A stretch of 64,000 bases of DNA, taken from the NCBI GenBank assembly GCA_963829525.1, contig CAWHIJ010000003.1, positions 2,587,211 through 2,651,210 of the forward strand. The letters are read 5' to 3'. The notes beneath the pieces are model-generated. The model searched no databases, had not been told where the DNA came from, and was given only the letters and a program-made list of their open reading frames with translations. This DNA is from an uncultured Actinomycetota bacterium (lineage in GTDB: Bacteria > Actinomycetota > Actinomycetes > JAHEKZ01). Below are positions 482 to 21,332 of this stretch, piece by piece; within the stretch, counting starts at the first letter, position 1; every line of letters starts with the position of its first letter. Both the position numbers and the translations under genes were made by a program.

Positions 482-570
482 CACTTTCTCTGCTAATCGT
501 TCCCCCGACGCGGCACCGAACGTGACCGCTTGATCACCGACGGCATCCCTTCAGCTGGTGTTTCCGCAGG

Positions 571-3168
571 TCAGCGCGCCGCTAACGGCGCGGGGAGCAC
601 CCCTCCAGTGCGGATGGCCCTTTCGGACCTTTCTTTTGGGACCTGACCGTAGGTCGTGGTCCGCTGCCGCGCCGGGCGTCCGACATCGGCAGCCCAGGCA
701 ACCAGTTCGGACACCGCTGTGGCCGAGCCGTGAGAGCTCCCGGCCATCCGGCTGATGGTCTCCTCCATGAGCGTCCCGCCGAGGTCGTCGACTCCGGCAC
801 CGAGCATGGTCTGGACACCGGTCGCGCCGAGCTTGACCCACGAGACCTGAATGTGGTCGATCCGACCGTGCAGCAGCAGCCGGGCCACCGCATGCACGGC
901 CCTCGTCTCCGCAGCGGTCGGGCCCGCGCGGCCGATCCCGGCGAGGTAGAGCGGCGCTGACTGGTGGACGAACGGCAGCGGCACGAACTCGGTGAAGCCA
1001 CCGACCCCCCTCGTCTTGGCCTTGTCCTGCACAGCCGCGAGCACCCGGAGATGCGTGAGCCAGTGGTCGGGACGATCGACGTGGCCGTACATCATCGTGC
1101 TGCTGGTGGGCAGCCCCAGCCGGTGCGCGGACTCGACCACCTCGACCCAGGTCGCGGTCGGCAGCTTGCCCTTGGTCAGCACCCAGCGCACGTCGTCGTC
1201 GAGGATCTCCGCGGCGGTGCCGGGAAGTGACCCAAGACCGGCCTCCTGCAGCGCCGCCAAGAACTCCGGGATCGACGTCCCGGCATGAGCTGCCCCCGTT
1301 GCCACCTCCATCGGGCTGAACGCGTGGACGTGCATCTCCGGGAGCGCTGCCTTGATGGCGCGGACCAGGTCGAAGTAGTGCGACGCCGGGATCTGCGGGT
1401 CGATGCCGCCCTGCATGCAGACCTCGGTGGCGCCGAGCTCCCAAGCCTCCTCTGCCCGCGTCGCGACTTCGTCGATGGAGAGCGAGTACGCGTCGGCATC
1501 GGAGCGACGCTGGGCGAAAGCGCAGAACCGGCAGCCGGTGTAGCAGACGTTGGTGAAGTTGATGTTGCGGTTGACGACGTAGGTGACCTCGTCGCCGACC
1601 ACGTCGCGACGCAGGTCGTCGGCGATAGCAGCCACGGCGTCGAGGTCGGCATCCTCGGCCGCCAGGATCGCCAGCGCTAGTCGTTCGTTCTCGGGATGGA
1701 GCAGCGCGGCCGGATCAGTCTCGGCAACGCGGAGCGCGTCCCGGACGTCGGCGGCCATCCGGCTCGCGGCCGGGGAGCTCGCGGCCGGGGAGCTCGCGGC
1801 CACCGCATCCCACGAACCGAAGGCGTCGTCGAAGTCGCTGCGCACCGCCTGACCTGCGCCCTTCGATGTCGATGCTGGCGTGCAGGTCGACGCGCCCCAA
1901 GTCATCCAGTCGATCCGGCTCCTGCCAGGGCAGCCCGCTCGGCCGAACCCCTTCTCGGGCGAGGCCGCCGTCGTCGGCGAGCGCGTCGACGTGCGGCTGC
2001 ACACGGGGGTCGAGCCAAGGCTCACCGCGCTGCGCGTAGGAAGGATGGACGGTGAGCCGCTCGCGCAGCACGAACCCCGGCCTCGCCGTCTGGTGAGCCA
2101 GGACCTGCAGGTGCGGCCAGGGCCGCTCCGGGTTGACGTGGTCGGGAGTCAGCGGGCTGACCCCTCCCCAGTCGTCGACCCCGGCAGCGAGCAGCCTCGG
2201 CAGCACATCGAGGTCGGAGAGGTTGGGCGGCACCTGGACCCGCATGGACGGGCCGAGCACCACCCGCGCGACCGCGACCGTCGCGAGGTAGTCGTCGGCT
2301 CCCGCATCAGCGGCGCTGGCCATCGCGGTGCCGGGCTTGGCCCGGAAGTTCTGGACGATGACCTCCTGCACGTGGCCATGGCGCGATGAGCCGACCGCAT
2401 GGCGAGCAGCGACTCAGCGCGCTCGACGAGCGTCTCGCCGATCCCGACCAGCACCCCGGTGGTGAACGGGACCGACAGCCGGCCGGCGTCCTCGAGCACC
2501 CTGAGCCGCACCGCAGGCTCCTTGTCGGGCGACCCGTGGTGCGGCGCCCCGGGCTCAGACCACAGCCGGTTGCTGGTCGTCTCGAGCATCAGACCCATCG
2601 ACGGCGCGACCGGCTTGAGGCGAAGGAGCTCGTCCCACGTCATGACGCCAGGGTTCAGGTGCGGCAGCAGCCCGGTCTCCTCGAGCACCAGAACCGCCAT
2701 CGCGCGGACGTAGTCCAGGGTGGTGTCGTAGCCGGCTTCGTCGAGCCAGGCACGTGCCTGGGGCCAGCGCTCCTCCGGGCGGTCGCCCAGGGTGAACAGC
2801 GCCTCCTTGCACTCGTCAGCGGCCCCGCTGCGCGCGATCGCCAGCACCTCGTCGGGCGACAGGTACGGCGCAGGCAGCTCCCTGGGGGCAGCGGCGAACG
2901 TGCAGTAGTGGCACCGGTCTCGGCAGAGCCGGGTCAGTGGGATGAAGACCTTGCGCGAGTACGTGATGACTCCGGGGCGTCCAGCATCTGCGAGCCCGCG
3001 GTCGCGCAGATTCGACGCCACGCGCATCAGGGCATCGAGCTCGGAACCTCGGGCTGCCATGAGCGCGGCAGCCTCCTGCGCATCAAGCTCCTTGCCCTGT
3101 TCGGCTCGACGGAGCGCCCGGCCGGTCTCTGTCGCAGTCGGCCAATGTTCGGACTTTGGGGGAGGCAT
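571..3168 (-). CDS. fbiC: FbiC (FO synthase, CofG+CofH fusion; radical SAM) with the reading frame interrupted twice; pseudogene or indel errors
   Basis: The CofG domain (CxxxCxYC; [15 protein letters not shown] motif) lies in frames 2149..3168 and 1715..2371. The CofH domain ([24 protein letters not shown]) lies in 571..2025. Frame switches fall near ~2378 and ~1845, and the net shift is zero. Confidence 0.8.
1763..1802. repeat. 15-bp tandem repeat (gctcgcggccgggga, ~2.7 copies) encoding AASSP repeats in the FbiC inter-domain linker
   Basis: Direct inspection: copies at 1763-1777 and 1778-1792, with a partial third copy. Confidence 0.8.
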
Positions 3169-3285
3169 CTGCCGAGAGTACGTCAGCGTTCGGTAAGGAC
3201 CTCGTCATCGCTTTGCCCTCGGATCACCGGCCGCCCCTGCCTAGCGTCGGGGTGCCCACTTGAAATCCTCGTTCTAAGGAATCCC

Positions 3286-3702
3286 ATGAACATGTCCCAG
3301 ATCGCGGCCGCAGCTGCCGCGATGGTTCTGACCGCTGCCCCACTGGCGGTCGCGTTGCCTGCCCAGGCAGACAGCAGCAACCCCCAAGGTGCCAACTTCG
3401 GAAAGCTCTACTACGACGGGTCCGTTGTCCGAACCGTTGCCACCCCGACGAGCCAGCCTGGACAAGGCGTTGACGCGATCTACCCAGTCACCGACGGAGT
3501 CCCCGGGCAGCTGGCCGTGACCTCGGCCGCACCCGGCGACAACTACCACGGTGGCCGCTGGGCCGTGAACGTCGTCAGCTGGAACACGTCGCCTTACCTA
3601 CTGACCTCTGATGAGGCAGTACTGGAGGCAGCCGAGGCCGGCCACGTGACTATCACCCGGATGCCAGTCGCAGACTTCGTCTGCCCGGTCGCCGGTCGCT
3701 GA
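3286..3702 (+). CDS. Small secreted protein of unknown function (138 aa, signal peptide)
   Basis: Begins MNMSQIAAAAAAMVLTAAPLAVALPAQA, which has the form of a signal peptide. AAGGA ribosome-binding site 8 nt upstream. The larger listed ORF 2386..3702 is antisense to fbiC in its upstream part. Confidence 0.6.
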   Translation: MNMSQIAAAAAAMVLTAAPLAVALPAQADSSNPQGANFGKLYYDGSVVRTVATPTSQPGQGVDAIYPVTDGVPGQLAVTSAAPGDNYHGGRWAVNVVSWNTSPYLLTSDEAVLEAAEAGHVTITRMPVADFVCPVAGR

Positions 3703-8822: not shown

Positions 8823-10283
8823 TTGTCCCTGTCACCGCTGCCACCGCCTGTTGACCGGTCCGGGTCATTCGGATCGGCGAACGGCGCAGTGTCGTCGAAC
8901 GGCGCAGTGTCGTCGAACGGCGCAGTGTCGTCGAACGGCGCAGTGTCGTCGAACGGCGCAGTGTCGGCCGTTCTGGCAGAAGCCGTCGCCGCCGCGGTCG
9001 GCGTTGACCCGCACGCGCTGACCGCCACCGAACGCAAGTCCCGCCTGACCGAGCTGCGCGCCGCGATCGACGCCCTCGAGGTCGCCTTCGACACCATCGT
9101 GGCCGCTGCCGACACCGCTGGAGACGGCCAGCTTCTCGATGGGGCCACCTCCACCGGGGCGTGGCTCCGACACACCCTGCACCTGACACCCCGCGACGCA
9201 GCCAGCCACGTCCGCACCGCCCGGATGCTCGGCCATGGCCGGGCGCCTGCAGGTCCGGCAGCTGCAGCGGTGCTGGCCGGAACCATCAGCTACTCCCACC
9301 TTCAAGCGATCACCAGCACTCTCGCCGACCTGACCGACCACCCCGGTCTTCCCCTCAGCGCACATACCCAGGCGGTGGAGTTGATGGTCGACCTCGCCAC
9401 CCAGGTCGACCCATCCGGCCTGCGAGCCGCCGCGCGGCACCTGCGCTACGTCCTGGACCCCGACCGCGGCAAAGCCGACCACGACCGACAGACCCAGGCC
9501 CGCCGCGCCTCCCTCGCCCCACTCCTCGACGGCACCTGGCGCCTGGAGATGCTCACCACCGCCGAAGGCGGTGCCCTGCTGAGCCAGCTGCTGGCCGCCA
9601 CCGGCGCACCCACCAGCGCGGACGACGCACGCACCCCGGCCCAACGCCGTCACGACGCGCTGATCGACGCCCTCCAAGCCGCGGCACAGTCCGACCAGCT
9701 CCCCGTCGCGAACGGGCTCAGCCCCCGAATCCTCATCACCGCGCCACCGCAGGCTTTCCTCCCCACAAACACCCGCAACCAGGCCCACGGCAACGACAAC
9801 GACCCGCTCGGCAGCGGCACAAGCATCACCGGTCCTAACACCCTTCGGTGGCGCCCAGCCCGCTTCGCCGACGGCACTCCGGTCCCGGGACCGCTCTTCG
9901 ACCACCTCGCCTGCAACCCCACCTTGACCCGCATCCTGCAAGAACCCGCCGGCGCCGTCCTCGACGTCGGTCGCGACCACCGGTTCTTCACCGGCGCCCA
10001 ACGCACCGCCCTCTGGGCCCGCGACCGCGGCTGCCGCTTTCCCGGTTGCACTGCCCCCTGGACCCACGCTCACCACATCACCGGCTGGAAAGACGGCGGT
10101 ACCACTGACCTCGCCAACGGCCTCCTCCTATGTGGCCACCACCACCGCGCCGTTCACGACGGCAACTGGGCCATCACCGCAGGTGCAGAAGGCGCCAACG
10201 GCACCATCACCTTCACCCACCCGCAACGAATCACGACCCACCACAGCCCCATCCCCCCACCTGACCCCCTCGCGATCGAGTAA
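8823..10283 (+). CDS. DUF222 (13E12-repeat family) protein with a C-terminal HNH endonuclease motif
   Basis: C-terminal HHITGWKDGGTTDLANGLLLCGHHHRAVH is an HNH nuclease motif. The central region resembles mycobacterial REP13E12 proteins. The N-terminus carries NGAVSS x5. Start uncertain (TTG at 8823). Confidence 0.8.
   Translation: MSLSPLPPPVDRSGSFGSANGAVSSNGAVSSNGAVSSNGAVSSNGAVSAVLAEAVAAAVGVDPHALTATERKSRLTELRAAIDALEVAFDTIVAAADTAGDGQLLDGATSTGAWLRHTLHLTPRDAASHVRTARMLGHGRAPAGPAAAAVLAGTISYSHLQAITSTLADLTDHPGLPLSAHTQAVELMVDLATQVDPSGLRAAARHLRYVLDPDRGKADHDRQTQARRASLAPLLDGTWRLEMLTTAEGGALLSQLLAATGAPTSADDARTPAQRRHDALIDALQAAAQSDQLPVANGLSPRILITAPPQAFLPTNTRNQAHGNDNDPLGSGTSITGPNTLRWRPARFADGTPVPGPLFDHLACNPTLTRILQEPAGAVLDVGRDHRFFTGAQRTALWARDRGCRFPGCTAPWTHAHHITGWKDGGTTDLANGLLLCGHHHRAVHDGNWAITAGAEGANGTITFTHPQRITTHHSPIPPPDPLAIE
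8878..8967. repeat. 18-bp perfect tandem repeat x5 (cgaacggcgcagtgtcgt) inside the DUF222 gene
   Basis: Direct inspection. The fifth copy differs at its last base. Confidence 0.95.
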
Positions 10284-10378
10284 CGACAGTTCGTTCCTCC
10301 GGACGATTCGCTCGGCGCACACGAGGGGGAACCCGGCTCACCTGAAACCGCAACCGCGCCTGAGCCCCCGCCCCGCAA

Positions 10379-11308
10379 CTACCACCGGCGATGCTGCGGC
10401 ACCGGCATCCGCGGCCCGCGCCTCGGCGCACCCACACCCGCCAGTTCCATCAACCGCTGCACCCTGTATCGATGACCGGCATAGGGCTCGAGCACTTCCG
10501 CCAGCCGCGCATCATCGCCCCGCTCGCCGGTCAGCCACCAGCAGATGTCCTTCGCCACGTGGTAGTCGCCGAATGACACCGCATCGGCGTCACCGTGCGC
10601 GCGCTGTCGTACCTCCGCCGATGTCCAGACACCCACTCCAGGCAGCGCTCGAAGCACTCGATCAGCCCCGGTGCCGGAAAGGTCAGCTGTTCGTTCGATG
10701 GCAGCGGCTGCCGATGCGACGACACGCAAGGTGCGGACGCGGTGGGGAGTGACTCCAGCTCGATGGAAATCCGCATCGGAGATCCGTCGCCATGCCCTCG
10801 GCGAAGGCGGCACCATCAGTCCTGTTGGCGCGGGGCCGGGTGCCGGCTCACCGAACCGTCGGACCAGCGACTGCCACGCGCGTCGTGCCTCGACGCCGGT
10901 CACCTTCTGCTCTATCACCGCAGCCATGCAGGCGTCGAAGGGACGCCGGGTTCGCGCCATCCGCCAGCCAGGCGCCCGCCGCGATGCCTCGGCGACGACC
11001 GAATGCACGGGGACAAAGCCTTCCGGCACGTCGCCGGCACCCAGCAGCACTGGGACGCCGCCCAACAACCACTGCGCACCCGGTCCCCAGGACGTTGCCT
11101 CCACACAACCGTCGGATGGCCGCGCCACAAGTCGCAGGGTTCCCGGCCCATCTGGCGTCGACGTGGCCCACCAAGCCACCGGCGTGAAGTTTCCGGCCAC
11201 TCGTTCGAACCGGAACGTTCGATACCGCGGCCCGCGGCTCAGCGGACCAAGGATGGCCACGAGGTCGACCGGGAAGCCGGGCTTCCACTTCCGCTCAGCC
11301 ACGAACAC
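10379..11308 (-). CDS. DNA-3-methyladenine glycosylase II (AlkA-like, HhH-GPD family)
   Basis: AlkA_N-like N-terminus and the HhH-GPD motif LPGVGVWTSAEV...D at the C-terminus. Confidence 0.75.
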   Translation of the reverse strand: MFVAERKWKPGFPVDLVAILGPLSRGPRYRTFRFERVAGNFTPVAWWATSTPDGPGTLRLVARPSDGCVEATSWGPGAQWLLGGVPVLLGAGDVPEGFVPVHSVVAEASRRAPGWRMARTRRPFDACMAAVIEQKVTGVEARRAWQSLVRRFGEPAPGPAPTGLMVPPSPRAWRRISDADFHRAGVTPHRVRTLRVVASAAAAIERTADLSGTGADRVLRALPGVGVWTSAEVRQRAHGDADAVSFGDYHVAKDICWWLTGERGDDARLAEVLEPYAGHRYRVQRLMELAGVGAPRRGPRMPVPQHRRW

Positions 11309-11324
11309 TGGGCACCGCTTCCAC

Positions 11325-12359
11325 TTACTGCGTCGCCTCCACCCTCGTCCCGGGCGCCGGGCTCGCCCCCGGCGCTAGCCGCGCGTGGTCACCCAGCACC
11401 GAGTCAACGACGACGGCTCCATCACCAACGATCGCCTCCGACCCGATCGCACTTCGCGTCACGGTCGCACCGGCGCCGATCACCGCACCAGGCATCACGA
11501 TCGACGCATCGATCACAGCACCCGACCCGATGTGGACGCCGGCGCCGATCGACGACCCGCCGAACACCTGAACATCTGTGGGGGGACGGTCGGCGTCACC
11601 GAACCAGGCCTGCCCGTGCGGCACCATGAGCGCCGCCGACGGAGCTACTCCGAGCACGACGTCGGCCGAACAGCGCACAAGCGCCTCCGGCGTTCCGACA
11701 TCGCACCAGTAAGCGGACTCCTTCCAGGCCCGCACATCGCGGCCAGACTCCAACAGACTCGGAAATGTGTCGCGTTCGACCGAGACCACCTGACCCGCCG
11801 GTATCGTGTCGATGACCGAGCGACGGAACACGTAGGCACCGGCGTTGACCCAGGAGGTCACGGGGCTATCCATCTTCTCCAGGAACGCGCTCACCCGGCC
11901 CTCATCATCGGTGGGAACGCATCCGTAGGCGCGGGCGTCGTCCACTTCGACGAGATGCAGCGTTACGTCCGCATCGACCGAGCAGTGGAAGGCGACCTGC
12001 CCACCGAGGTCGTGCCCCGAGAGCACGTCACCATTGAGGATCACCACAGGATCATCAGGACGGGAGTCCAATCCGCTTGCAGCATTGCGAATTGCACCGC
12101 CCGTGCCGAGCGGAGTGTCCTCATGCAGGTAGGTCACACGCAGACCGACCGGAGACCCGTCGCCGAATGTCTCCTGGAAGATCTCCGCGCGGTAAGACGT
12201 CGCAAGCACCACGTGGTCAACGCCGGCCCGGCGCAAGGCAGCGAGCTGGTGGGCGAGGAACGGCATGCCGGCCACCGGCAGCAACGGCTTCGGCGTGGTC
12301 AGCGTGAGGGGGCGCAGCCGTATACCTTGGCCGCCGACGAGCAAGACTGCTTCGCGCAT
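11325..12359 (-). CDS. Mannose-1-phosphate guanylyltransferase (GDP-mannose pyrophosphorylase), with a C-terminal left-handed beta-helix
   Basis: N-terminal LLVGGQGIRLRPLTLTTPKPLLPVAG nucleotidyltransferase motif and a C-terminal hexapeptide-repeat region. Positional homologue of M. tuberculosis manB (Rv3264c) beside fbiB. Confidence 0.85.
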   Translation of the reverse strand: MREAVLLVGGQGIRLRPLTLTTPKPLLPVAGMPFLAHQLAALRRAGVDHVVLATSYRAEIFQETFGDGSPVGLRVTYLHEDTPLGTGGAIRNAASGLDSRPDDPVVILNGDVLSGHDLGGQVAFHCSVDADVTLHLVEVDDARAYGCVPTDDEGRVSAFLEKMDSPVTSWVNAGAYVFRRSVIDTIPAGQVVSVERDTFPSLLESGRDVRAWKESAYWCDVGTPEALVRCSADVVLGVAPSAALMVPHGQAWFGDADRPPTDVQVFGGSSIGAGVHIGSGAVIDASIVMPGAVIGAGATVTRSAIGSEAIVGDGAVVVDSVLGDHARLAPGASPAPGTRVEATQ

Positions 12360-12395
12360 GGCGTCAGCCTAGAGCGGCGTCGGCCGACCGCTAGC

Positions 12396-15161
12396 TCAGG
12401 AGTACCAGCCAACGACTCGAAGTGACACCACCGCATCAGAACGCTTGGCAGCGATGGTGATCTCCCCATCGTGTCCGATCGGAACCACCAAGAGCGTGCG
12501 CTGAGTTCCTCTCTTGTCGTACGCCAGCAGAGGCAGCGGGTCCGTGGTCGAGCCGGCCGGGAGAACAGACAGGAAACCGTCACCAGAATCGCTTCGGGCC
12601 AACGCCTGGACAAGAACCGCCGATGCCGCTCCGGGGACCCCAGTGTCTGATCCACGAACCCGCACAGACTGAGCAGTTCCGGCAGCGAGATCTGCTGACG
12701 AGCCTGCACCAAGGGCGTTGTAACTCTTCATGCTGCGGAACCTTCCGGAACGCTCACCCTGCTGCGGACGGAACCAGCCGAGCACATCTACGCGTACGTC
12801 TGACTTGCCGCTCGTTAGACGCAGCGGAAGCCGACCGTCCGCGTCAAGCTTGACCACGCTCGTCCCCGTCCGCCACGTCCCTGCTGGCGCCCGAACAACA
12901 GCGCCCAGCGAGCGGGGCGTGCCGGACGGAGCCATGCTGAGAGTTGCCGTACGGGTCGGGTTGATCAGCCCGGCACTGACCAGCACGGTGCGGATCTCGG
13001 TCGGGACTCCCTGGCGGCCGGCAATTCTTACGGTACGCGTTGTGCCGGACACCAGGCGCCCTGTCGACCAGCCAAAGCCGGTTGAGCTATCGACGAGACG
13101 TCTCGCTGAGACCGCCTTGAGTGATTGGGTGCCAACGCCCGACGACGTGTAGTAGCCGAGGAAGTCGACGTCAAGCCGGGCCAGGCTAGTAGTTGCCCCC
13201 AAGCAGATCCGTCCCGTGGCCGGTACCCGAACCGTTGCCAGTCCAGCGCTCGCTCCTGATGCCTGGTAGGTCACTGCCACCTGGTCGCGATCAGCAGCAC
13301 CGCACGGCCAGACCTGAACGCGGCCAGCGCTCCCGGCACCAGCGGCGGTGACGCGCACTGCAGCCGCGCGAGTTCCGGACGCGGGCGCGCGACCGCGCCC
13401 GAGAACGTCGACCGAGATGGTGCCACCACGACGCGAGGAGGGTGTATCGCCACGTTCGGCGATTCGCGCCGTCGTAACCGGCTGGTAATAGGAGTACGAA
13501 GACGTCGGGACGAATGTCGGGGTTGTGGTGTACGGACCCACGCCGGACCGGTAGATGGGGGCAACCCTGGCGCGATACTGCTTGCCGTTTGTCAGGCTGG
13601 AGACGCGAACGTGGCGGGCCCCGGCGTCGACGCGATACGCCGCGTCGCCCGACGACAGCGTGATCCGGTACCCCTTGACGCGGCGGCCGGAGTCAGGGGC
13701 ACCCCAGCTGACCCGAGCCGAGCGGTCGCCTCGCTCGGCACGGACGTTAGTCGCTGGTGCTGGTACGCCGCTGTCGGCGTTCGTGACCGTCCACCAGGTG
13801 CTCTTGAGGCCCGCGGCCCATCGGAAGCTGTCAGCCGAGACGCTGATGGTGCTCTTGCTGCCGACCAGCCCAACGGACAGAACTCGGCCGCCCCACTGAC
13901 CGTTCCCGTCGCGAGCGAGCACCTTGAGACTTCGCAACTTACCGATCTGCGGCCAAGCGTTCTGCACCGTGGCAGCTTTAACCGTCGTCGACCAGCTGTG
14001 CCCCCAGTTCGACTCCCCCGTGACGACCCCGTCATATGGGTCAGGCTTGGCCGTCAGGTAGGGCCGTCCGCCGGAGACCGAGTAGCCACCATTGGCGGAG
14101 CCGAACATGGCAAAGACCGGTTGGCCGGCATCGCGGAGATACTGAGTCGCGGTCGACTTCACTGCATCCACTTCAGGACCGCTCTCGGCCGAGATGGGGG
14201 CGTACACCTGGCAGGAGGTGGTGTCACAGATGTCATAGGCACGGTGGGTGGTCCGTGCGTTCAACTGCGCCACCAGCGCGTAGCTACGCGCCGCGATCGC
14301 CTGCGCCCTCAGCGCGGCACCGGTCCACGAACTCGGGACCTCCGAGGAGACTACTGACCGAAGATAGTCCTCCAGAAGTAGCCGGTTCATGGCAAGGACC
14401 GACGAGGACCCTCGGGCGATCTCGAGGTATCCGCGATAGACACGAGTGTTTCCGTCGGCGGACTCAACGGCGACGCGGCTCTTGCCAACGGCAGAACTGG
14501 TCTGCCACCTGACCGATCCACTCATCCCACCCTTGACCTTGACTACCTTGGCTGACGAGACTGCCAAGACCTCCAGTCCCGCACTTCCCCTGACGACGCG
14601 GAAGGCACTGACTGGCTCACCTCCAGCCCTTCCGGGCAGGGCAACGGAGCCACCCTTGTATATGAGGGAGAGCCCCTTCCGAGGAGGAACCACCACACCG
14701 GTGCCTTGGGGGGTACTGCCCACAACACCGGAAAGCCCCACAGTGATCTGTCGGGTTGCTGCGCCTTCGACGAGCCTCGTGCCCGGGTAGTAGAACTTCA
14801 CAATCTCGCGATAGCTCTTGCCAAGGCGCCCCATGCCCTCGGCGCCGAACTGCGACATGCCGATGCCGTGGCCGTACCCGAGTCCGGAGAGCCGGAAGGT
14901 GCCGCTGCCCGGCACGGCGTAGCTTTCGACTGCGCCAGCTGCACGGGCGCTCGTGGCCATGACCGCAATAGATCCAGCCACCAGAGCCGCAACCAGCACC
15001 GACACCAGGGCCGCTGCCAGAGCCGCCTCGGGGGCGCCGACGAAAGCCGCTCCCCGCATAGGGATCCCGACGCGCAGCAGAGCAGGATTTCGGTTTGTCT
15101 CACGCGTCACACCCGTCACAGACAGGTGTCTCGGCAGTTGTTCGGGCGAACCTGAGTTCAC
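12396..15161 (-). CDS. Secreted SpoIID/LytB-domain protein with an FN3 domain and three ~100-aa C-terminal repeat modules (921 aa)
   Basis: GYGHGIGMSQFGAEGMG and YRGYLEI motifs of the SpoIID/LytB amidase-enhancer domain. Signal/TM segment at the N-terminus. Repeats each end in VDV(L/x)GW(F/Y). Confidence 0.8.
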   Translation of the reverse strand: MNSGSPEQLPRHLSVTGVTRETNRNPALLRVGIPMRGAAFVGAPEAALAAALVSVLVAALVAGSIAVMATSARAAGAVESYAVPGSGTFRLSGLGYGHGIGMSQFGAEGMGRLGKSYREIVKFYYPGTRLVEGAATRQITVGLSGVVGSTPQGTGVVVPPRKGLSLIYKGGSVALPGRAGGEPVSAFRVVRGSAGLEVLAVSSAKVVKVKGGMSGSVRWQTSSAVGKSRVAVESADGNTRVYRGYLEIARGSSSVLAMNRLLLEDYLRSVVSSEVPSSWTGAALRAQAIAARSYALVAQLNARTTHRAYDICDTTSCQVYAPISAESGPEVDAVKSTATQYLRDAGQPVFAMFGSANGGYSVSGGRPYLTAKPDPYDGVVTGESNWGHSWSTTVKAATVQNAWPQIGKLRSLKVLARDGNGQWGGRVLSVGLVGSKSTISVSADSFRWAAGLKSTWWTVTNADSGVPAPATNVRAERGDRSARVSWGAPDSGRRVKGYRITLSSGDAAYRVDAGARHVRVSSLTNGKQYRARVAPIYRSGVGPYTTTPTFVPTSSYSYYQPVTTARIAERGDTPSSRRGGTISVDVLGRGRAPASGTRAAAVRVTAAGAGSAGRVQVWPCGAADRDQVAVTYQASGASAGLATVRVPATGRICLGATTSLARLDVDFLGYYTSSGVGTQSLKAVSARRLVDSSTGFGWSTGRLVSGTTRTVRIAGRQGVPTEIRTVLVSAGLINPTRTATLSMAPSGTPRSLGAVVRAPAGTWRTGTSVVKLDADGRLPLRLTSGKSDVRVDVLGWFRPQQGERSGRFRSMKSYNALGAGSSADLAAGTAQSVRVRGSDTGVPGAASAVLVQALARSDSGDGFLSVLPAGSTTDPLPLLAYDKRGTQRTLLVVPIGHDGEITIAAKRSDAVVSLRVVGWYS

Positions 15162-15179
15162 CCGGCCTGACCTGCAGCT

Positions 15180-17900
15180 TTATCGAATCCAGCCGACGAT
15201 GCTCAGATTTGCCGTCAGACGGGAATCCTCCGACCGGACCCGCAAGTCGCCACCTGCGCCCAGACGCATCACCGCCAGCGTCTCCCGGGCTTGCCTCGAT
15301 GGCACGATCAGGTCTGCCGAGGTCGGCACTCTGGCGCCTCGGGGCCAGAGCTTCAACCGGCCGGCATCGTTGTTCGAGGATCCGGTGAGCTGGACCACCA
15401 CGGCGGACGCATCGGTCGGAACTCCAGCGTGTCCACCCACGCGGACGGTCGTCGCCTCACCCTTGCCGAGCGCAGCGCCACCTCCAAGCAGCGACCTCGG
15501 CACCACCGGATGGACGTCGCTTGAGTCACCGGCAGCGACGTACCCGGCCACGTCCAAAGAAACCGGACCGGATCTGTCGGAGGCAACGCGGATGCTGCCG
15601 TTGCTGCCAAGCGGCACAATCACTTGGGACACGCTGCTGTTCCCACTTGCTCGTCTCCACGTCGGAGTTGCCGTCTGCGCACCATCTGCAGCCCAGGCCC
15701 AGACTGCACCCACCCGGGAGCTGCTGCTTCTGCGGATCGCAAGAACGACAGCGCGCGCATTGGCCGGTACCCCTGCGCGACCGGCGACGTCGACGCTGAC
15801 CGGTGAACTGCTCAGCGACAACGGACTTGCACCGGCGAGCGCTCTGCGGCGCAGGGGCGTCAGCGATCCCCCCGCTCCGTCGGTGCTCACGTAGCCCACA
15901 ACGGAGGCCTTGAGGGCAACCGCGCCACTCTGGTTGTGGAATCGGATGCCGCCCCCCGGCCCGACGCGGACCATGGCAAACCCACGTGCCGTCGAGCCAG
16001 TCCCCAGTGAGAGGACCCGCGCACCGGTCCCGTTCACCGTGTCAGGACTCACCGACACCCGCGTCCCGGTACTGGCACAGGCAGCCTCGACCGAGATTGC
16101 CACCGCCGAGACACCACTCTTCGGAACGCCCGCCCGCCCGAGCACCTGTACATCGAGCTTGCGGTCCGGCCCGAGAAGGAGCCGATCGGAAATCCCGGTT
16201 CCAGCCGTCGTTGCGAGCAAGGTGCGCGCGCGCTGGGGGACGTAAGCGCCGGCGGGAACCTTGTCCAGTGATGTTGCGGTTGGCGCAGCCGATCGACCAC
16301 CGACTCCGACCAGCACCGATCGTTGGAAGGGCCAGGCCCTGCTGCCGTTGCCGCTGCTCGTCAGCGTAAGTCGATATCGGCCAGGCGCTGCCTGGCTGCC
16401 GTTGTCAGTGCCCCCGCGCCAGGCAGCCTTGATCGGGGTGCCCGCAGCGGCTTCCCCGGTGAGACGTCGTACGACCGCTCCCGTGCAGTAGTCGCGCACC
16501 GTCAGGGTCCAGCTCTGCTGCTGCAGAACGCCGGCTCGCACCACGACGTTTACGTCTTCACCCATCGGCACCGACTCCTCTGAGATCGTCGGCTCCACGA
16601 GGCTCGCGCCCATGTCGCCAGCAGCGAGCCGGCGGATCGTCGGGAGTCGTTGGTACAGGTTGTCACCAGGACAGGCGGTCAGCTGTGAGTCGCGATGACC
16701 GGAAATGACCCTGAAACGCACTTTGCGACCGGGTGCGTACTTCGACGAACCCACCTCAGCAGTCAACCTCTTGCGGCCGAATGGATCGCGGTGATACCTC
16801 GAGAGGCGGTAGGCCAAGACCTCGGCGATCCCTCGCACCATCGCGTCCGACGCCGGTGCCGTCTGGAAGTTTCCCATCGCGACCACCGCGACCGTGTCGG
16901 TGTTGAAGCCACCCGATGCCGCAGAGCGCACCGGCTTGGTGATGCTCCCTGCGCGCCCCTCGTAGATGGTGCCGTACTTGTCAACGAGGAAGTTGTATCC
17001 CATGTCGGCGTAGTCGAGGGTGTTGACGTAGTAGCTGTAAAGCCCCCGCACCACCGCTGGGCTTTCGCTACGCGTGTAGTTGTTGCTGCCTGCGGTGTGG
17101 TGGACGAAAGCCACCTTGAACGTGTTGCTGTTCTCCAGATGCTTGTCCCGCAGCGACTCGTCGGCACCCCACTCAGCCCGGGTGACAATCGGCGGCTTGT
17201 TGGTCGAAGCCGCCGCGCTCGACCCGCTCCATGGCTCGGTGATCGCAGCGTCGGCATCCGATGTTCCCGGTTCGATCAGGTCAGCCCGCACATCCGCGGG
17301 GGCAGCGTCACCAACAGCGTCTATCCGCACTTGGAACCCATCGGAGTCACCCGCCCAGTAAGGGACGGTTCCAAAACGACCGTTCGGCGAGGGTTCGGTT
17401 CCGCCGTCCACCATCGTCTGTAGCTCGAACCAGTCGGTCCAATGACTGTCGGTGCGCGTGCGAGCGGTCACCAGAACCGCACCATCCTTGCTCGGTCCCG
17501 CGCCGGTCCACGTGACGCCGACCATGCGGTAGTCCGCTGTCGCGATCGGCTCGGTGAGCAGCACCGGAGGCCGGTCGGCCACGCGAGCGGCGGTGGACAC
17601 CGAGGATCGACCAACCTGACGCCACATCGACGCGAGCTCGTTTGGTGCCGGAGCCGAACGCAGGGCTTGGACATCAACCCCAGCCAGCGGCAACTGTTGA
17701 ACCTGAGGTGCCACCGGGTGCGGGGCATGCCGAGACGCAGTGAAGGTCGGCGCCACCACGGCGGTGGGGACGACGAGGACGATGGCGAACAGCGCGCTCG
17801 CGGGTGCCGGACGGGGAAAACGCACAGAGAGCCTCTCCGGGGGAAGTCGGTGGTCCGATGGGAAGGCGAACCTTCCTGGTGCCATCGGCCGGATTTGCAC
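15180..17900 (-). CDS. Secreted N-acetylmuramoyl-L-alanine amidase (Amidase_2/PGRP domain) with four C-terminal repeat modules (906 aa)
   Basis: Amidase_2 motifs AFVHHTAG...YNFLVDKYGTIYEGRAG...SGHRD...CPG. The C-terminal ~100-aa repeats are paralogous to those of the adjacent SpoIID protein. Confidence 0.8.
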   Translation of the reverse strand: MQIRPMAPGRFAFPSDHRLPPERLSVRFPRPAPASALFAIVLVVPTAVVAPTFTASRHAPHPVAPQVQQLPLAGVDVQALRSAPAPNELASMWRQVGRSSVSTAARVADRPPVLLTEPIATADYRMVGVTWTGAGPSKDGAVLVTARTRTDSHWTDWFELQTMVDGGTEPSPNGRFGTVPYWAGDSDGFQVRIDAVGDAAPADVRADLIEPGTSDADAAITEPWSGSSAAASTNKPPIVTRAEWGADESLRDKHLENSNTFKVAFVHHTAGSNNYTRSESPAVVRGLYSYYVNTLDYADMGYNFLVDKYGTIYEGRAGSITKPVRSAASGGFNTDTVAVVAMGNFQTAPASDAMVRGIAEVLAYRLSRYHRDPFGRKRLTAEVGSSKYAPGRKVRFRVISGHRDSQLTACPGDNLYQRLPTIRRLAAGDMGASLVEPTISEESVPMGEDVNVVVRAGVLQQQSWTLTVRDYCTGAVVRRLTGEAAAGTPIKAAWRGGTDNGSQAAPGRYRLTLTSSGNGSRAWPFQRSVLVGVGGRSAAPTATSLDKVPAGAYVPQRARTLLATTAGTGISDRLLLGPDRKLDVQVLGRAGVPKSGVSAVAISVEAACASTGTRVSVSPDTVNGTGARVLSLGTGSTARGFAMVRVGPGGGIRFHNQSGAVALKASVVGYVSTDGAGGSLTPLRRRALAGASPLSLSSSPVSVDVAGRAGVPANARAVVLAIRRSSSSRVGAVWAWAADGAQTATPTWRRASGNSSVSQVIVPLGSNGSIRVASDRSGPVSLDVAGYVAAGDSSDVHPVVPRSLLGGGAALGKGEATTVRVGGHAGVPTDASAVVVQLTGSSNNDAGRLKLWPRGARVPTSADLIVPSRQARETLAVMRLGAGGDLRVRSEDSRLTANLSIVGWIR

Positions 17901-17932: not shown

Positions 17933-18679
17933 GTGACCTCGACTTCAGAGCATCTACGCCGCGCGTTGGCCGCCGATCCCTCCGGACCCCGCCTGACCTA
18001 CTACGACGACGCCACTGGGGAACGAGTGGAGCTCTCCACCACCACGCTCGCCAACTGGGTGGCCAAGACGGCCAACCTGCTGGTGCTGGAGTGCGGGGTC
18101 GGTCCAGAATCGGAGATCTCCCTCCACCTGCCCCGCCATTGGACGACAGCGGTGTGGGTACTTGCCGCCGACGCCACCGGTGCCAGGGTCACCCACGAAC
18201 CCGGCTTCGCATCACCCAGCGGATCGGTCGACGTAGCTGTGGTGAGCCCCGATCACGTCGACGACCCACCGGACGCCGAAGAGGTCTTCGCCGTCTCCCT
18301 AGCGCCGCTCGCTGCGCCGTTCACCAGGCCGCTGCCTCCGCTCGTACGGGACTACAGCATCGAGGTCCGGGCAATGCCGGACCAGGTCAGTGATGCAGTC
18401 GGCCCGCCGGGACCCCTTGGCGCGCTTGCCGAGGAGCAAGCGGCGACCCAAAGTCTGGAGCCGACCGACCGAGTTGCCGCGCTCGGCGACCTGGTGGGTC
18501 TGGATTGTCTTGTCAGCCAGTGGCTCGCGCCGCTCGCCGTTGGAGCCAGTGTGATTTGGGTGCGGAACCCAGAACCTGAGCTGTGCGTCCGACGATGGGC
18601 GACCGAACGGGTGACGGCAGTCTCTGGCACGCTGCCGAACGGGGTACCACTGCCTGAGTCGATTCGGCTGTTGGCCTGA
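17933..18679 (+). CDS. TIGR03089-family conserved actinobacterial protein
   Basis: LTYYDDATGERVELSTTTLANWVAKTANLL matches the mycobacterial Rv3268 family, which typically sits beside an LCP gene. Confidence 0.75.
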   Translation: MTSTSEHLRRALAADPSGPRLTYYDDATGERVELSTTTLANWVAKTANLLVLECGVGPESEISLHLPRHWTTAVWVLAADATGARVTHEPGFASPSGSVDVAVVSPDHVDDPPDAEEVFAVSLAPLAAPFTRPLPPLVRDYSIEVRAMPDQVSDAVGPPGPLGALAEEQAATQSLEPTDRVAALGDLVGLDCLVSQWLAPLAVGASVIWVRNPEPELCVRRWATERVTAVSGTLPNGVPLPESIRLLA

Positions 18680-18724: not shown

Positions 18725-20182
18725 ATGACCCACAGCGCCCCTGCCGACGAAGCGGCAACCGACGCACCGGCAGGTCATCTGAGGCTGCGCCGTACGCTGA
18801 AGTGGCTCGCGATCGTCGTTACTTTGCTACTGCTTGCCGGCGGAGTAACTGGCTTCTACCTCTACCAGAGGCTCCAGGGGAACATCGGGGTCGGCGACTA
18901 CCTCAATGACAACTTTCTCGGCACCGAGCGCCCCACTAAGCAGGCTACCCAGGCACCCGACGAGAAAGAACCACTCAACATTCTCGTGATGGGCTCAGAC
19001 ACCCGCGCTGGTCAGGGGAAAGGCTACGGCGATCCGTCCACGATCACCGGGGCCAGGTCAGATACCACCTTGCTCGTCCACCTTCCCGCTGACCGTGAGA
19101 GCGCCCTGGTCGTCAGCATCCCCCGCGACACCATCGTTGACGTGCCCTCCTGCAAGACCGATACAGGTACATCCTCGCCGTACACCGATCGCTTCAACTC
19201 CGCGTTCTCCATCGGTGGTCCCGGCTGCACGATCAAGACGGTCGAGCAGAACACCGGGGTCTTCATCGACCACTTCGTGATCGTCGACTTTTCCGGGTTC
19301 AACGACATCGTCGATGCACTCGGGGGAGTCGACGTCTGCCTGCCCTACGCTGTGGTTGAGCCTAAGAGCAAGCTCAACCTTCCGGCCGGGGTCAGCACCG
19401 TCACCGGCGATCAGGCACTGGCGTTTGTGCGAGTGCGTGCCATCGGCACGGGAAGTGACATCGACCGCATCGATCGTCAGCAAGCCTTCCTGTCATCGTT
19501 GATCGAAAAGGCACGCAGCTCCGGCACGCTCCTGAACCCAGTCAAGCTTGTCCGGTTCCTGGAGGCGGCCACCAAGTCGCTCACCACCGACCCGGAGTTG
19601 GCCAACCTCAACCGGATGCGCCAACTTGCTCAAGAGGTGCGCGGGATTCCCCCCAAGGACATCACCTTCTTGACCACACCGTGGTTGGTGAATCCGGCTG
19701 ACCCCAACACCGTCATCTGGAACACCGACAAGACCGATCCCCTCTGGAAAGCCATCTCCACCGACCAGCCGTACCCTCCGGAACCTCCAGATCCAACGGT
19801 CATCGACGGTGAGCCCCTCGCTGTCGCCCCGGAGTCGATCGATGTCCGGGTCCTCAACGGGACCGGCAAGGACGGGGCCGCCACAGCGGCCGCTGCCAAG
19901 CTCAGCAAGCAGGGATTCAACGTCGTCGGTGTCGGTGACGCCGAGAGCACTGACTTCCTTTCCACAGTCGTTCGCTTCGACGTCGCTGGTGAACAGTCGG
20001 CCAGGACTGTGGCGGCATCACTGAGTGACGCAACCCGCGTGCGGCAACCCGGTCTTGGCTCCACCATCGAGGTTGTCGTCGGCGAGGACTGGCCGGGGGT
20101 CAGCCCTGTGGTCGTCAAGGAACCTCGTACGAACGACGGCGTCCGGAACGCCAGCGACAACATCTGCAACGTCCCCGGCTGA
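18725..20182 (+). CDS. LytR-CpsA-Psr (LCP) family cell-wall glycopolymer ligase with a LytR_C domain
   Basis: N-terminal TM segment, LCP catalytic core (NILVMGSDTR...SDTTLLVHL...SIPRD) and a C-terminal LytR_C domain. Confidence 0.85.
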   Translation: MTHSAPADEAATDAPAGHLRLRRTLKWLAIVVTLLLLAGGVTGFYLYQRLQGNIGVGDYLNDNFLGTERPTKQATQAPDEKEPLNILVMGSDTRAGQGKGYGDPSTITGARSDTTLLVHLPADRESALVVSIPRDTIVDVPSCKTDTGTSSPYTDRFNSAFSIGGPGCTIKTVEQNTGVFIDHFVIVDFSGFNDIVDALGGVDVCLPYAVVEPKSKLNLPAGVSTVTGDQALAFVRVRAIGTGSDIDRIDRQQAFLSSLIEKARSSGTLLNPVKLVRFLEAATKSLTTDPELANLNRMRQLAQEVRGIPPKDITFLTTPWLVNPADPNTVIWNTDKTDPLWKAISTDQPYPPEPPDPTVIDGEPLAVAPESIDVRVLNGTGKDGAATAAAAKLSKQGFNVVGVGDAESTDFLSTVVRFDVAGEQSARTVAASLSDATRVRQPGLGSTIEVVVGEDWPGVSPVVVKEPRTNDGVRNASDNICNVPG

Positions 20183-20300: not shown

Positions 20301-21332
20301 TCACGGTCGGCCCTCAGGACTCCCGGCGACCTCAGCGCCCTCGACGACCTCAGGACTCCCGGCGACCTCAGCGCCCTCGACGACCTCAGGACTCCCGGCA
20401 ACCTCAGGTGATTTCGGCGGGACGGAGAGCCCATCACCGTCGTCATCGTCCAGGTAGTCTTCGTTCAGCGGCACAACGCCACTGGCAGCGAGCCGCCTGG
20501 CCTCCCTGCTTCGCCGTCTGCGCTCTCGCCGGGCCTTCTTGCGCTCGCCCTTCCATCCGGGATGACCTTCTATCTCCCGGTCGGCGTTGTACTGCTGGAG
20601 CACCTCACCGATATCACCGTCGGCCTGGACCCGGCCCCGACGGAGATAGATCCCGCGCGTGCACAGCCGCTGCAGCTGTCGATCGCTGTGCGAGACCAGG
20701 AAGAGCGTCTTGCCTCCCGCCAGCATGGTGTCGATCCGTTCATAGGCCTTGCGCCTGAAGGAACTGTCTCCGACGGACAGCGTCTCATCGATGACGACCG
20801 TCGGCTCGTCGATCGAGGTGATCAGCGAGAAGGCCACCCGAGTCTTCATTCCGCTGGAAAGGTGCCGGAAAGGTGTGTCGACGAAGTCCCCCACTTCCGC
20901 GAAGTCGATGATGTCGTCGAACTTCGCCTCGATCTCCTCGCGGAACATCCCGTGCAGCCCACCGACGATGTGGATGTTGTCGCGAACCGTGAGGTCAGAC
21001 TTGAACCCGCCTGAGATGTTCACCAGGGGTGCAACACTGCCCACCAAGCGCACCGAGCCCTCGTCCGGGATCAGTATGCCGGCCACCAGTTTGAGCAGCG
21101 TGCTCTTTCCCTGACCATTCGCGCCGATGATTCCCACCGACTCGCCCTGCGAAATCTGGAACGAGACATTCCTGAGGGCCCAGAATTCGCTCCTCGCTTG
21201 CTCGGTGTCCTTTCGAAGCAGGTCGGAGACCCGGCGATGCCTGATCCGGTTGCGCCGAAACTTGATACCGAGGTTGCGCGCCTCGATGGCAATCGGGCCA
21301 TCGAGAGGATCACCGATCATGGGTGCGACCAC
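20301..21332 (-). CDS. ABC transporter ATP-binding protein (Wzt/TagH-like polysaccharide exporter) with an acidic repeat tail
   Basis: Walker A GANGQGKST, ABC signature LSSGM, Walker B. The C-terminal tail carries a DDDDGD stretch and PEVVEGAEVAGS repeats. Confidence 0.9.
   Translation of the reverse strand: MVAPMIGDPLDGPIAIEARNLGIKFRRNRIRHRRVSDLLRKDTEQARSEFWALRNVSFQISQGESVGIIGANGQGKSTLLKLVAGILIPDEGSVRLVGSVAPLVNISGGFKSDLTVRDNIHIVGGLHGMFREEIEAKFDDIIDFAEVGDFVDTPFRHLSSGMKTRVAFSLITSIDEPTVVIDETLSVGDSSFRRKAYERIDTMLAGGKTLFLVSHSDRQLQRLCTRGIYLRRGRVQADGDIGEVLQQYNADREIEGHPGWKGERKKARRERRRRSREARRLAASGVVPLNEDYLDDDDGDGLSVPPKSPEVAGSPEVVEGAEVAGSPEVVEGAEVAGSPEGRP
20312..20406. repeat. 36-bp tandem repeat (~2.6 copies) encoding the C-terminal tail of the Wzt-like ATPase
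   Basis: Unit cctcaggactcccggcgacctcagcgccctcgacga at 20312-20347 and 20348-20383, with a partial third copy. Confidence 0.9.

Follow-up and report, generated by a model that had tools for sequence, protein, structure and literature searches.

A conserved amidase and SpoIID gene pair of Actinomycetota with shared, predicted jelly-roll triplets

SpoIID proteins are lytic transglycosylases, and the enzyme of Clostridioides difficile digests peptidoglycan only after an amidase has stripped the stem peptides (PMC6221140). SpoIID needs this prior action, and the dependence between the two enzymes therefore runs from the amidase to SpoIID. The SpoIID of Waddlia, a non-sporulating bacterium, acts with AmiA on denuded glycan, and a general role in vegetative or septal remodelling has been proposed (PMC6635528). 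Rv3811 (Ami3) is one of the two Amidase_2 amidases of Mycobacterium tuberculosis (PMC3987819); it is a cell-wall amidase whose accumulation is toxic in M. smegmatis, where Pmt-dependent O-mannosylation reportedly stabilises the protein (PMC12735335). The SLH and CWB2 anchors require three repeats, and bind secondary wall polymers that are attached by LCP proteins (PMC4973711). Here we analyse a 64,000-nucleotide stretch of DNA, the window, from an uncultured Actinomycetota bacterium (contig CAWHIJ010000003.1 of assembly GCA_963829525.1), and within it two adjacent genes, B and A, which encode a predicted amidase and a predicted SpoIID/LytB-type lytic transglycosylase that end in the same three-module unit, the triplet.

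We think it rather probable that the locus is a conserved 'denude-and-cut' pair of peptidoglycan-degrading enzymes that belongs to the core genome and is anchored through its triplets to a shared envelope component. The exported zinc amidase B would remove stem peptides from N-acetylmuramic acid, and the exported SpoIID-type lytic transglycosylase A would cleave the resulting peptide-free glycan strands. Both proteins follow one layout, in which FlgD_ig or fn3 serves as an Ig-like spacer between the catalytic domain and three jelly-rolls of ~115 residues, predicted to pack as a compact unit. Through non-covalent attachment of their triplets to one envelope component, which could be peptidoglycan or a wall glycopolymer linked by LCP, the two enzymes would act at the same sites. 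The order of the steps, B and then A, would match that of SpoIIP/SpoIID and AmiA/SpoIID, the systems from which we draw it by analogy.

The amidase and SpoIID gene pair

A sequence-only reading of this DNA had proposed a dedicated two-enzyme unit, and the proposal is now well supported by seven-locus synteny, by a fusion protein in the orthologous slot and by further fusions of SpoIID with Amidase_2. The closest genomes are metagenome-assembled genomes (MAGs) of uncultured Actinomycetes and Candidatus Nanopelagicales. Judged wherever a contig extends far enough, the order ABC ATPase, LCP, TIGR03089, amidase, SpoIID, ManB and a homolog of the 309-residue gene at 10379 is kept in seven MAG loci (66-76% identity). 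The manB position is kept in loci L001-L007 and L010, and the TIGR03089/LCP position in L002, L003, L005-L007 and L010; the 10379-type gene is syntenic throughout, with 72-83% identity in L001-L007 and 53% in L010. Synteny is retained across relatives down to 34-44% identity.

In the distant relative L010, positions 10001-14086 encode P0058, a 1361-residue fusion with the order Rv3811_N, Amidase_2, FlgD_ig, SpoIID, fn3 and a single triplet. Its parts match B(60-529) and A(79-921), in that order, and it is flanked by LCP/TIGR03089 orthologs on one side and by ManB and the 10379-type gene on the other. At this orthologous locus, either one gene was split and its triplet duplicated, or two genes were fused and one triplet was lost. 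At least 23 SpoIID and Amidase_2 fusions occur among the 240 homologs listed (18 of 120 in one listing and 5 of 120 in the other), some of which lie elsewhere in the genome and have no triplet. Adjacency, synteny and the fusion at the orthologous locus together indicate that the enzymes most likely act as a team, and we infer that B and A are co-transcribed.

Among the fusion proteins, those of ~1360 residues with one triplet each are P0058, P0059-P0062, P0335, P0340, P0345 and P0351. Another homolog, P0105 (L011 8001-11211), is a 921-residue, triplet-less fusion with the order Rv3811_N, Amidase_2, fn3 and SpoIID; its context is unrelated, and the next small gene weakly matches Phage_holin_4_2.

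The two genes had been described as lying 18 nt apart on the same strand. They do share a strand, and the gap is 18 nt when the longest open reading frames (ORFs) are taken; it is 120 nt with the starts of the source annotation, which places that of A at M35 (887 residues; P0001, 100% identical to A) and that of B at V26 (881 residues; P0413).

The ORF of B, its Pfam match and its intact catalytic residues uphold the earlier identification of a 906-residue Amidase_2/PGRP amidase. The Amidase_2 domain (PF01510) reaches 48.2 bits (cutoff 26), and matches PGRP structures with E-values down to 1e-15. Alignment to these structures places the zinc ligands at H268 (HHTAG), H402 (GHRD) and C410 (TACPG) and the catalytic tyrosine at Y302 (GYNFLV); C410 stands where the non-catalytic human PGRP-S carries a serine. 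As judged from the alignment, B has the residue configuration of an active amidase. Rv3811_N (PF27503) has been precomputed for P0270 (96% identical to B) and for essentially all B orthologs, where it lies upstream of PF01510, as it does in the fusions; we assign it to B through the annotation of these orthologs. Because B orthologs carry Rv3811_N and Amidase_2, the N-terminal half of B has the architecture of mycobacterial Ami3 (Rv3811). FlgD_ig is also called in B orthologs and in fusion proteins. We considered PF27503 as the Pfam family of the C-terminal module and rejected it, since it is Rv3811_N and accompanies Amidase_2 even in 500-residue proteins and in triplet-less fusions.

The other protein, A, had been read as a 921-residue SpoIID/LytB protein with an fn3 domain, which its ORF and its Pfam and NCBIfam scores bear out. 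It scores 80.8 bits with SpoIID PF08486 (cutoff 23) and 170 bits with TIGR02669 (cutoff 83.3), and falls below the sporulation-specific SpoIID equivalog TIGR02870 (100 bits; cutoff 234.75). Its E274 ('VVSSEVP') aligns with the catalytic-glutamate motifs 'VVASEM' of 4rwr and 'VLAGEM' of 5i1t. In C. difficile SpoIID, the catalytic glutamate is E101 and the zinc site consists of H134, C140, H145 and C146 (PMC6221140). A keeps three of these four zinc ligands (H306, C312 and C317), and the equivalent of H145 is S316; in the same alignment B. anthracis SpoIID is without these cysteines, so that the zinc site is not universal. The catalytic residues of both proteins are intact in the alignments, which speaks against degenerate motifs. 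The description of SpoIID as an amidase activator was imprecise, because it is a lytic transglycosylase that needs amidase-denuded glycan (PMC6221140, PMC6635528).

The order of segments in A departs from that of described SpoIID proteins. Its residues 226-377 align to 32-198 of the solved SpoIID structure 4rwr (B. anthracis). The conserved GYGHGIGMSQFGA…YYPG segment (residues 93-130) precedes the core (226-463) and pairs with residues 280-317, at the C-terminal end of that structure. The canonical order, with GxGHGxGMSQxGA at the C-terminus, is not found in A. A motif segment that is N-terminal to the core and yet matches the SpoIID C-terminus means that the domain of A is a circular permutation of the order found in the SpoIID proteins of Bacillus and Clostridioides and in TIGR02669. 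The permuted order recurs in the fusion homologs P0058 and P0089.

Both proteins carry one hydrophobic segment, at the N-terminus, by a Kyte-Doolittle heuristic (19-residue window; maximum 2.2 at residue 32 of B and 2.5 at residue 50 of A), in line with the secretion that the sequence-only reading had assumed. The V26 start would give B a textbook signal peptide. Near the two C-termini, an LPXTG-like sortase motif is absent and both proteins end exactly at the last module; sortase anchoring was rejected.

The C-terminal modules and their family

The C-terminal halves of A and B are homologous (BLASTP A449-919 against B456-904, E = 1.5e-28), and they also give significant alignments in shifted register, as repeats predict. 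The six modules have ~112-123 residues each and share 22-27% pairwise identity. A module profile finds exactly three significant copies per protein (independent E-values of 1e-36 to 1e-40; all other stretches above 5) and no copies outside A and B over the 64-kb window. Thus the shared C-terminal module of ~100 residues proposed from the sequence stands, and the proposed three copies in A and four in B become three and three. A fourth module in B was rejected, as the protein has three significant profile matches and the segment before them is FlgD_ig-like.

Similarly, the motif first noted for the modules, R-L-(L/V)D(T/S)R…VDV-G(W/Y)(F/V), is true of the family consensus and only weakly kept in the local copies. 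In that consensus the motif reads RLLDTR…VDVxGYF, as proteins such as P0121 show clearly. R-L-(L/V)-D-(T/S)-R is missing from all six local modules, A module 2 being nearest with 'RRLVDSS', and G-(W/Y) is the sole part of the end motif retained in all six. Local modules retain 13-18 of 30 family-signature positions, whereas the family averages 25.3 and has its 5th percentile at 16. Among orthologs, identity is 50-62% in the modules, 56% in the Ig-like spacers, and 68% and 77% in the catalytic domains (68% for SpoIID). The modules are about as conserved as the spacers and less so than the catalytic domains, and are therefore maintained but less constrained.

The module belongs to a hitherto undescribed domain family, which is very widespread and lies outside Pfam and NCBIfam models. 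An exhaustive profile search returned 22,086 representative proteins at E ≤ 1e-3, with 13,194 at E ≤ 1e-10, each standing for a cluster at 50% identity. A Pfam scan of the six local modules at E ≤ 10 gave only noise, and among 65 canonical module-bearing proteins no Pfam family occurs in more than four and no NCBIfam family in more than three. Module-only and C-terminal fragments go by the name 'hypothetical protein' and lack any precomputed Pfam annotation, and a word-indexed homolog search with the module alignment returned 23 short fragments, all unannotated. A PDB sequence search with the module profile found no relative; matches of nanobody-framework PDB entries to one strand-like stretch were short and were treated as chance. 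A literature search on the 'LLDTR' motif yielded nothing relevant. The module has no sequence-profile match to SLH, CWB2, CW_binding_1, LysM, SH3b, PG_binding_1, LGFP or GW, and the suspicion that it could be a known wall-binding repeat thus found no match to described wall-binding families.

The number of copies is narrowly set. In 151 proteins (149 matches from the representative search together with A and B), exactly three modules occur in 129 and six in 8, with linkers of ~4-5 residues. The partner domains are diverse and include RCC1 propellers, subtilases and other proteases, CHAP, Amidase_2, esterases and glycosidase-like domains.

AlphaFold2 predicts that residues 552-921 of A form a compact all-beta unit of three jelly-rolls (predicted local distance difference test, pLDDT, 94.5; predicted template modelling score, pTM, 0.92), and that a single module is an 8-stranded sandwich (pLDDT 94.9). 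In this model the triplet closes into one compact three-module unit, not an extended scaffold. A Foldseek search with the single module matches 9h38, the C-terminal domain (CTD) of F-BclA, with a template modelling (TM) score of 0.47-0.52 and E ~6e-3; viral coat proteins score similarly, and the carbohydrate-binding modules (CBM) 36, 22, 16, 29 and 70 score about as high as assembly domains. The predicted module is a generic jelly-roll to which no specific superfamily can be assigned. The triplet matches groupings of three jelly-rolls, among them a single-chain TNF-family trimer, the triple jelly roll of Sulfolobus turreted icosahedral virus (STIV), P1 polyproteins of picornaviruses, a phage protein with a C1q domain and a BclA-CTD protein of a giant virus (TMq 0.54). 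The arrangement of the three modules is probably pseudo-threefold.

Genomic setting and rival explanations

The features of the locus are collected in Table 1. The gene downstream of A had been called manB, correctly so: it is of the Rv3264c type and scores above the curated NF052502 cutoff (445.9 bits; cutoff 440). We take the corresponding mycobacterial region to be manB - wbbL1 - rmlD - LCP, and manB downstream with TIGR03089 and LCP upstream is consistent with that comparison. The Ami3-like amidase B lies two genes from ManB, an enzyme of GDP-mannose synthesis, an arrangement to be set beside the O-mannosylation of M. smegmatis Ami3.

Searches of Pfam and NCBIfam with the 309-residue gene gave no match; by eye, its 'LPGVGVWTSAEV' stretch looks helix-hairpin-helix-like and recalls AlkA-type glycosylases. 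The gene for the TagH/Wzt-type ABC ATPase contains, at its 3' end, a 36-bp tandem repeat (20312-20408; 2.7 copies, 98% matches) that encodes a repeated PEVAGSPEVVEGAEVAGS tail, and a near-perfect tandem repeat of 18 bp (8874-8966; 5.2 copies with 98% matches) gives the DUF222/HNH endonuclease ORF an N-terminal (SSNGAV)n stretch. Beyond the ABC ATPase, a second, divergent LCP paralog (~37-42% identity to the LCP protein of the window) occurs in L002, L003 and L005-L007 (about 500-3400) and at 4414-5880 of L010, where two Stealth-family (CR1-CR4) genes adjoin it. The remaining genes of the window are housekeeping genes (purK, nadC and nadB). A promoter/terminator scan, with site counts equal to those of shuffled sequence, found no terminator-like site between B, A, manB and the 10379 gene, and is uninformative for this organism.

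Table 1. Features of the locus in window coordinates (nucleotides; residues refer to the longest ORFs)
Feature	Position	Strand	Description and basis
DUF222/HNH endonuclease ORF	8823-10283	+	homologs flank the cluster in L002, L005 and L006
309-residue gene	10379..11308	-	family unassigned; conserved; 16 nt downstream of manB
manB	11325..12359	-	Rv3264c-type mannose-1-phosphate guanylyltransferase; NF052502; 36 nt downstream of A
Gene A	12396..15161	-	longest ORF 921 residues; predicted exported SpoIID/LytB-type lytic transglycosylase with fn3 and jelly-roll triplet
A jelly-roll triplet	12399..13496	-	modules 556-672, 680-799 and 807-921; alignment, profile and AlphaFold2
A fibronectin type III (fn3) spacer	13524..13757	-	residues 469-546; Pfam fn3, 34.1 bits (cutoff 25)
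A SpoIID/LytB catalytic domain	13773..14900	-	residues 88-463; TIGR02669; circularly permuted
A N-terminal hydrophobic segment	14937..15059	-	residues ~35-75, then TSARAAG; signal peptide or signal anchor
Gene B	15180..17900	-	longest ORF 906 residues; predicted exported Rv3811_N/Amidase_2 N-acetylmuramoyl-L-alanine amidase with jelly-roll triplet
B jelly-roll triplet	15183..16247	-	modules 552-672, 677-789 and 795-906; alignment and three profile matches
B Ig-like spacer	16350..16514	-	residues 463-517; FlgD_ig-like; Pfam 24.7 bits, just under the cutoff of 27
B Amidase_2/PGRP catalytic domain	16662..17120	-	residues 261-413; Pfam
B N-terminal domain	17211..17603	-	residues ~100-230, YRMVGVTW inside; probably Rv3811_N (PF27503), boundaries inferred
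B signal peptide	17730..17825	-	residues ~26-57: MRFPRP, hydrophobic core, TFTASRHA; hydropathy heuristic
TIGR03089-family protein	17933-18679	+	divergent from B; NCBIfam TIGR03089, 211 bits
LCP glycopolymer transferase	18725-20182	+	divergent from B; TIGR00350, 158 bits
TagH/Wzt-type ABC (ATP-binding cassette) ATPase	20301-21332	-	glycopolymer exporter; beyond the LCP gene

We now turn to the role of the triplet. In homologous enzymes with the layouts Amidase_2 - FlgD_ig - X and SpoIID - fn3 - X, the same architectural position X is filled by three CWB2 repeats (P0114, P0358, P0372 and P0380), three LGFP repeats (P0092) or PG_binding_1 (P0077). The position of the triplet is thus taken by wall-binding modules, which suggests wall anchoring. 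From this comparison of architectures, the triplet is most likely a non-covalent anchor to the wall or a wall polymer that co-localises A and B. The many unrelated secreted enzymes that carry the triplet, and the three-repeat anchors SLH and CWB2, also speak for such a role. The wall-targeting role first proposed for the module is plausible, but the module, a jelly-roll in the models, is found also on proteases, esterases, RCC1 propellers and other domains.

Several observations weigh against this account of the locus. The enzyme activities and the wall binding of the triplet are predictions, and the SpoIID domain is permuted and has a replaced zinc ligand (H145 to S316), so that activity should not be assumed. 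Most of the polar residues that the family conserves (DTR, NVT and SNLN) are gone from the local modules; if these residues form the ligand site, binding by the triplet may be altered or lost. The position-specific conservation of modules 1, 2 and 3 across the family is 0.34, compared with 0.33 by chance, unlike CWB2, and Foldseek TM scores to solved trimeric jelly-rolls are at most 0.24. Given the diversity of its partners, the triplet could serve oligomerisation, protein-protein contact or stability. The promoter/terminator scan, with counts no different from those of shuffled sequence, lends no support to the putative operon of B and A.

The main alternative is that the triplet is a structural or oligomerisation 'knob' of the BclA/C1q kind, shared by A and B through descent from a fused ancestor, and serving protein-protein contacts, surface-layer assembly or protease resistance in secreted actinobacterial proteins. 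The best single-domain matches do include assembly domains, namely the BclA CTD (TM ~0.5), endospore appendage subunits and viral coat proteins, yet CBM-type jelly-rolls score about equally. RCC1 propellers, subtilases and esterases are partners with no obvious wall substrate, and the local copies have been maintained despite the loss of most conserved polar residues. However, a knob of this kind sits poorly with the 3xCWB2, 3xLGFP and PG_binding_1 modules that hold the position of the triplet in homologous enzymes. The fusion protein, with a single triplet for both enzymes, can be read in its favor, whereas the presence of a triplet on each gene after the split, or before the fusion, suggests that each enzyme needs its own. 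On balance we consider a structural role unlikely, while giving it more weight than the two explanations that follow.

A and B might also be independent autolysins that happen to be neighbours, or A might regulate or activate the amidase, activation being the role first proposed for it, without cutting glycan itself. Work by Morlot et al. from 2010 is said to have found that B. subtilis SpoIID enhances the activity of SpoIIP, and the permutation of the A domain, together with the substitution of one C. difficile zinc ligand, could have changed or abolished its activity; nor does the promoter/terminator scan establish an operon. Nevertheless, the catalytic glutamate and motifs are conserved in A, few regions are better conserved in orthologs than the SpoIID domain (68% identity), characterised SpoIID proteins are enzymes that act on denuded glycan, and repeated independent SpoIID-Amidase_2 fusions, including that of P0058 at the orthologous locus, are strong evidence of a functional link between the two proteins. 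We therefore regard independence or mere regulation as improbable. The least probable explanation, to which we give very little credence, is that the pair is a lysis cassette of a phage or mobile element, endolysin-like and with a host-specific binding domain. Phages often carry Amidase_2 domains and jelly-roll receptor-binding domains, tail-fibre or minor tail proteins account for many of the BFVD matches, a DUF222/HNH gene lies ~2 kb away, and the triplet-less fusion P0105 adjoins a weak holin-like gene. But both proteins have N-terminal export signals, no phage structural genes lie nearby, and the pair sits in a core-gene setting (manB, LCP, TIGR03089, purK and nadB/nadC) with synteny down to 34-44% identity. 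No GC or composition anomaly was found at the locus within the window, and this, with the housekeeping surroundings, argues against a mobile or prophage origin; a prophage origin was rejected on synteny and composition.

Returning to the wall-anchored enzyme pair as the preferred explanation, we can also formulate a broader version of it, which we offer tentatively and would not expect to hold in all its parts. The module would be a third, independently evolved 'three-repeat' anchor to secondary wall polymers, after SLH and CWB2, built as an obligate single-chain pseudo-trimer and used for the display of exoenzymes in Actinomycetota. B and the permuted A would then be a vegetative denude-and-cut machine that exists in split or fused form.

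Significance and comparison with known systems

The logic of an amidase followed by SpoIID is already known; what is new is the pairing and fusion of Rv3811_N/Amidase_2 with a permuted SpoIID, and the uncatalogued jelly-roll triplet. The locus provides a compact, naturally split-or-fused example of an amidase and SpoIID outside sporulation, and makes a general role in vegetative wall turnover testable in Actinomycetota. It also ties the mycobacterial Ami3 architecture (Rv3811_N and Amidase_2) to a partner enzyme class. Because the module family is absent from Pfam and NCBIfam models, ~350 residues are left unannotated in each of thousands of secreted actinobacterial proteins. If the triplet does anchor to a wall polymer, it would explain the surface retention of many actinobacterial exoenzymes and yield a new targeting tag.

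The SpoIID-SpoIIP (DMP) system of Bacillus and Clostridioides is alike in that an amidase strips the peptides, the SpoIID lytic transglycosylase degrades the denuded glycan, and the enzymes are kept together (PMC6221140). Here, however, the amidase is Amidase_2/PGRP with Rv3811_N and not SpoIIP, the SpoIID domain is circularly permuted, the conserved neighbourhood contains no SpoIIM-like gene, and there is no sporulation context, with TIGR02870 under its cutoff. Co-localisation is proposed to occur through identical C-terminal triplets or covalent fusion, and not through a membrane scaffold. By analogy, the pair resembles SpoIIDMP in its logic and is not a member of it.

The amidase of Waddlia chondrophila is of the Amidase_3 type. 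At the division septum of this bacterium, SpoIID and AmiA offer the same likeness outside sporulation, a SpoIID that works on amidase-denuded glycan (PMC6635528). The phylum and the envelope are different, the Waddlia genes are not reported to be adjacent or fused, and the two Waddlia proteins have no shared targeting module. Mycobacterial Ami3 (Rv3811 / MSMEG_6406) corresponds to the N-terminal half of B in its Rv3811_N and Amidase_2 domains, to which B adds the Ig-like domain, the jelly-roll triplet and a SpoIID partner.

The trimers of TNF, C1q and BclA CTD and the multi-jelly-roll capsids of viruses resemble the modelled triplet in the 8-stranded jelly-roll, for which the BclA CTD gives the best TM scores (~0.5), and in the grouping of three jelly-rolls. 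This likeness is at the level of the fold (TM at most 0.54, 8-15% identity), and here the three modules lie in one chain with linkers of 4-5 residues. SLH and CWB2 have no sequence relation to the module, which is a ~115-residue, 8-stranded jelly-roll in the models, in contrast to the helical SLH repeats of ~55 residues and the CWB2 repeats of ~90 residues; the repeats here also lack the position-specific divergence of CWB2. What they have in common is that three tandem repeats terminate secreted enzymes of diverse kinds, and three CWB2 repeats take the place of the triplet in homologs of both A and B. SLH and CWB2 bind LCP-attached polymers (PMC4973711), and the locus analysed here has as neighbours the genes for an LCP transferase and for an ABC exporter of a glycopolymer.

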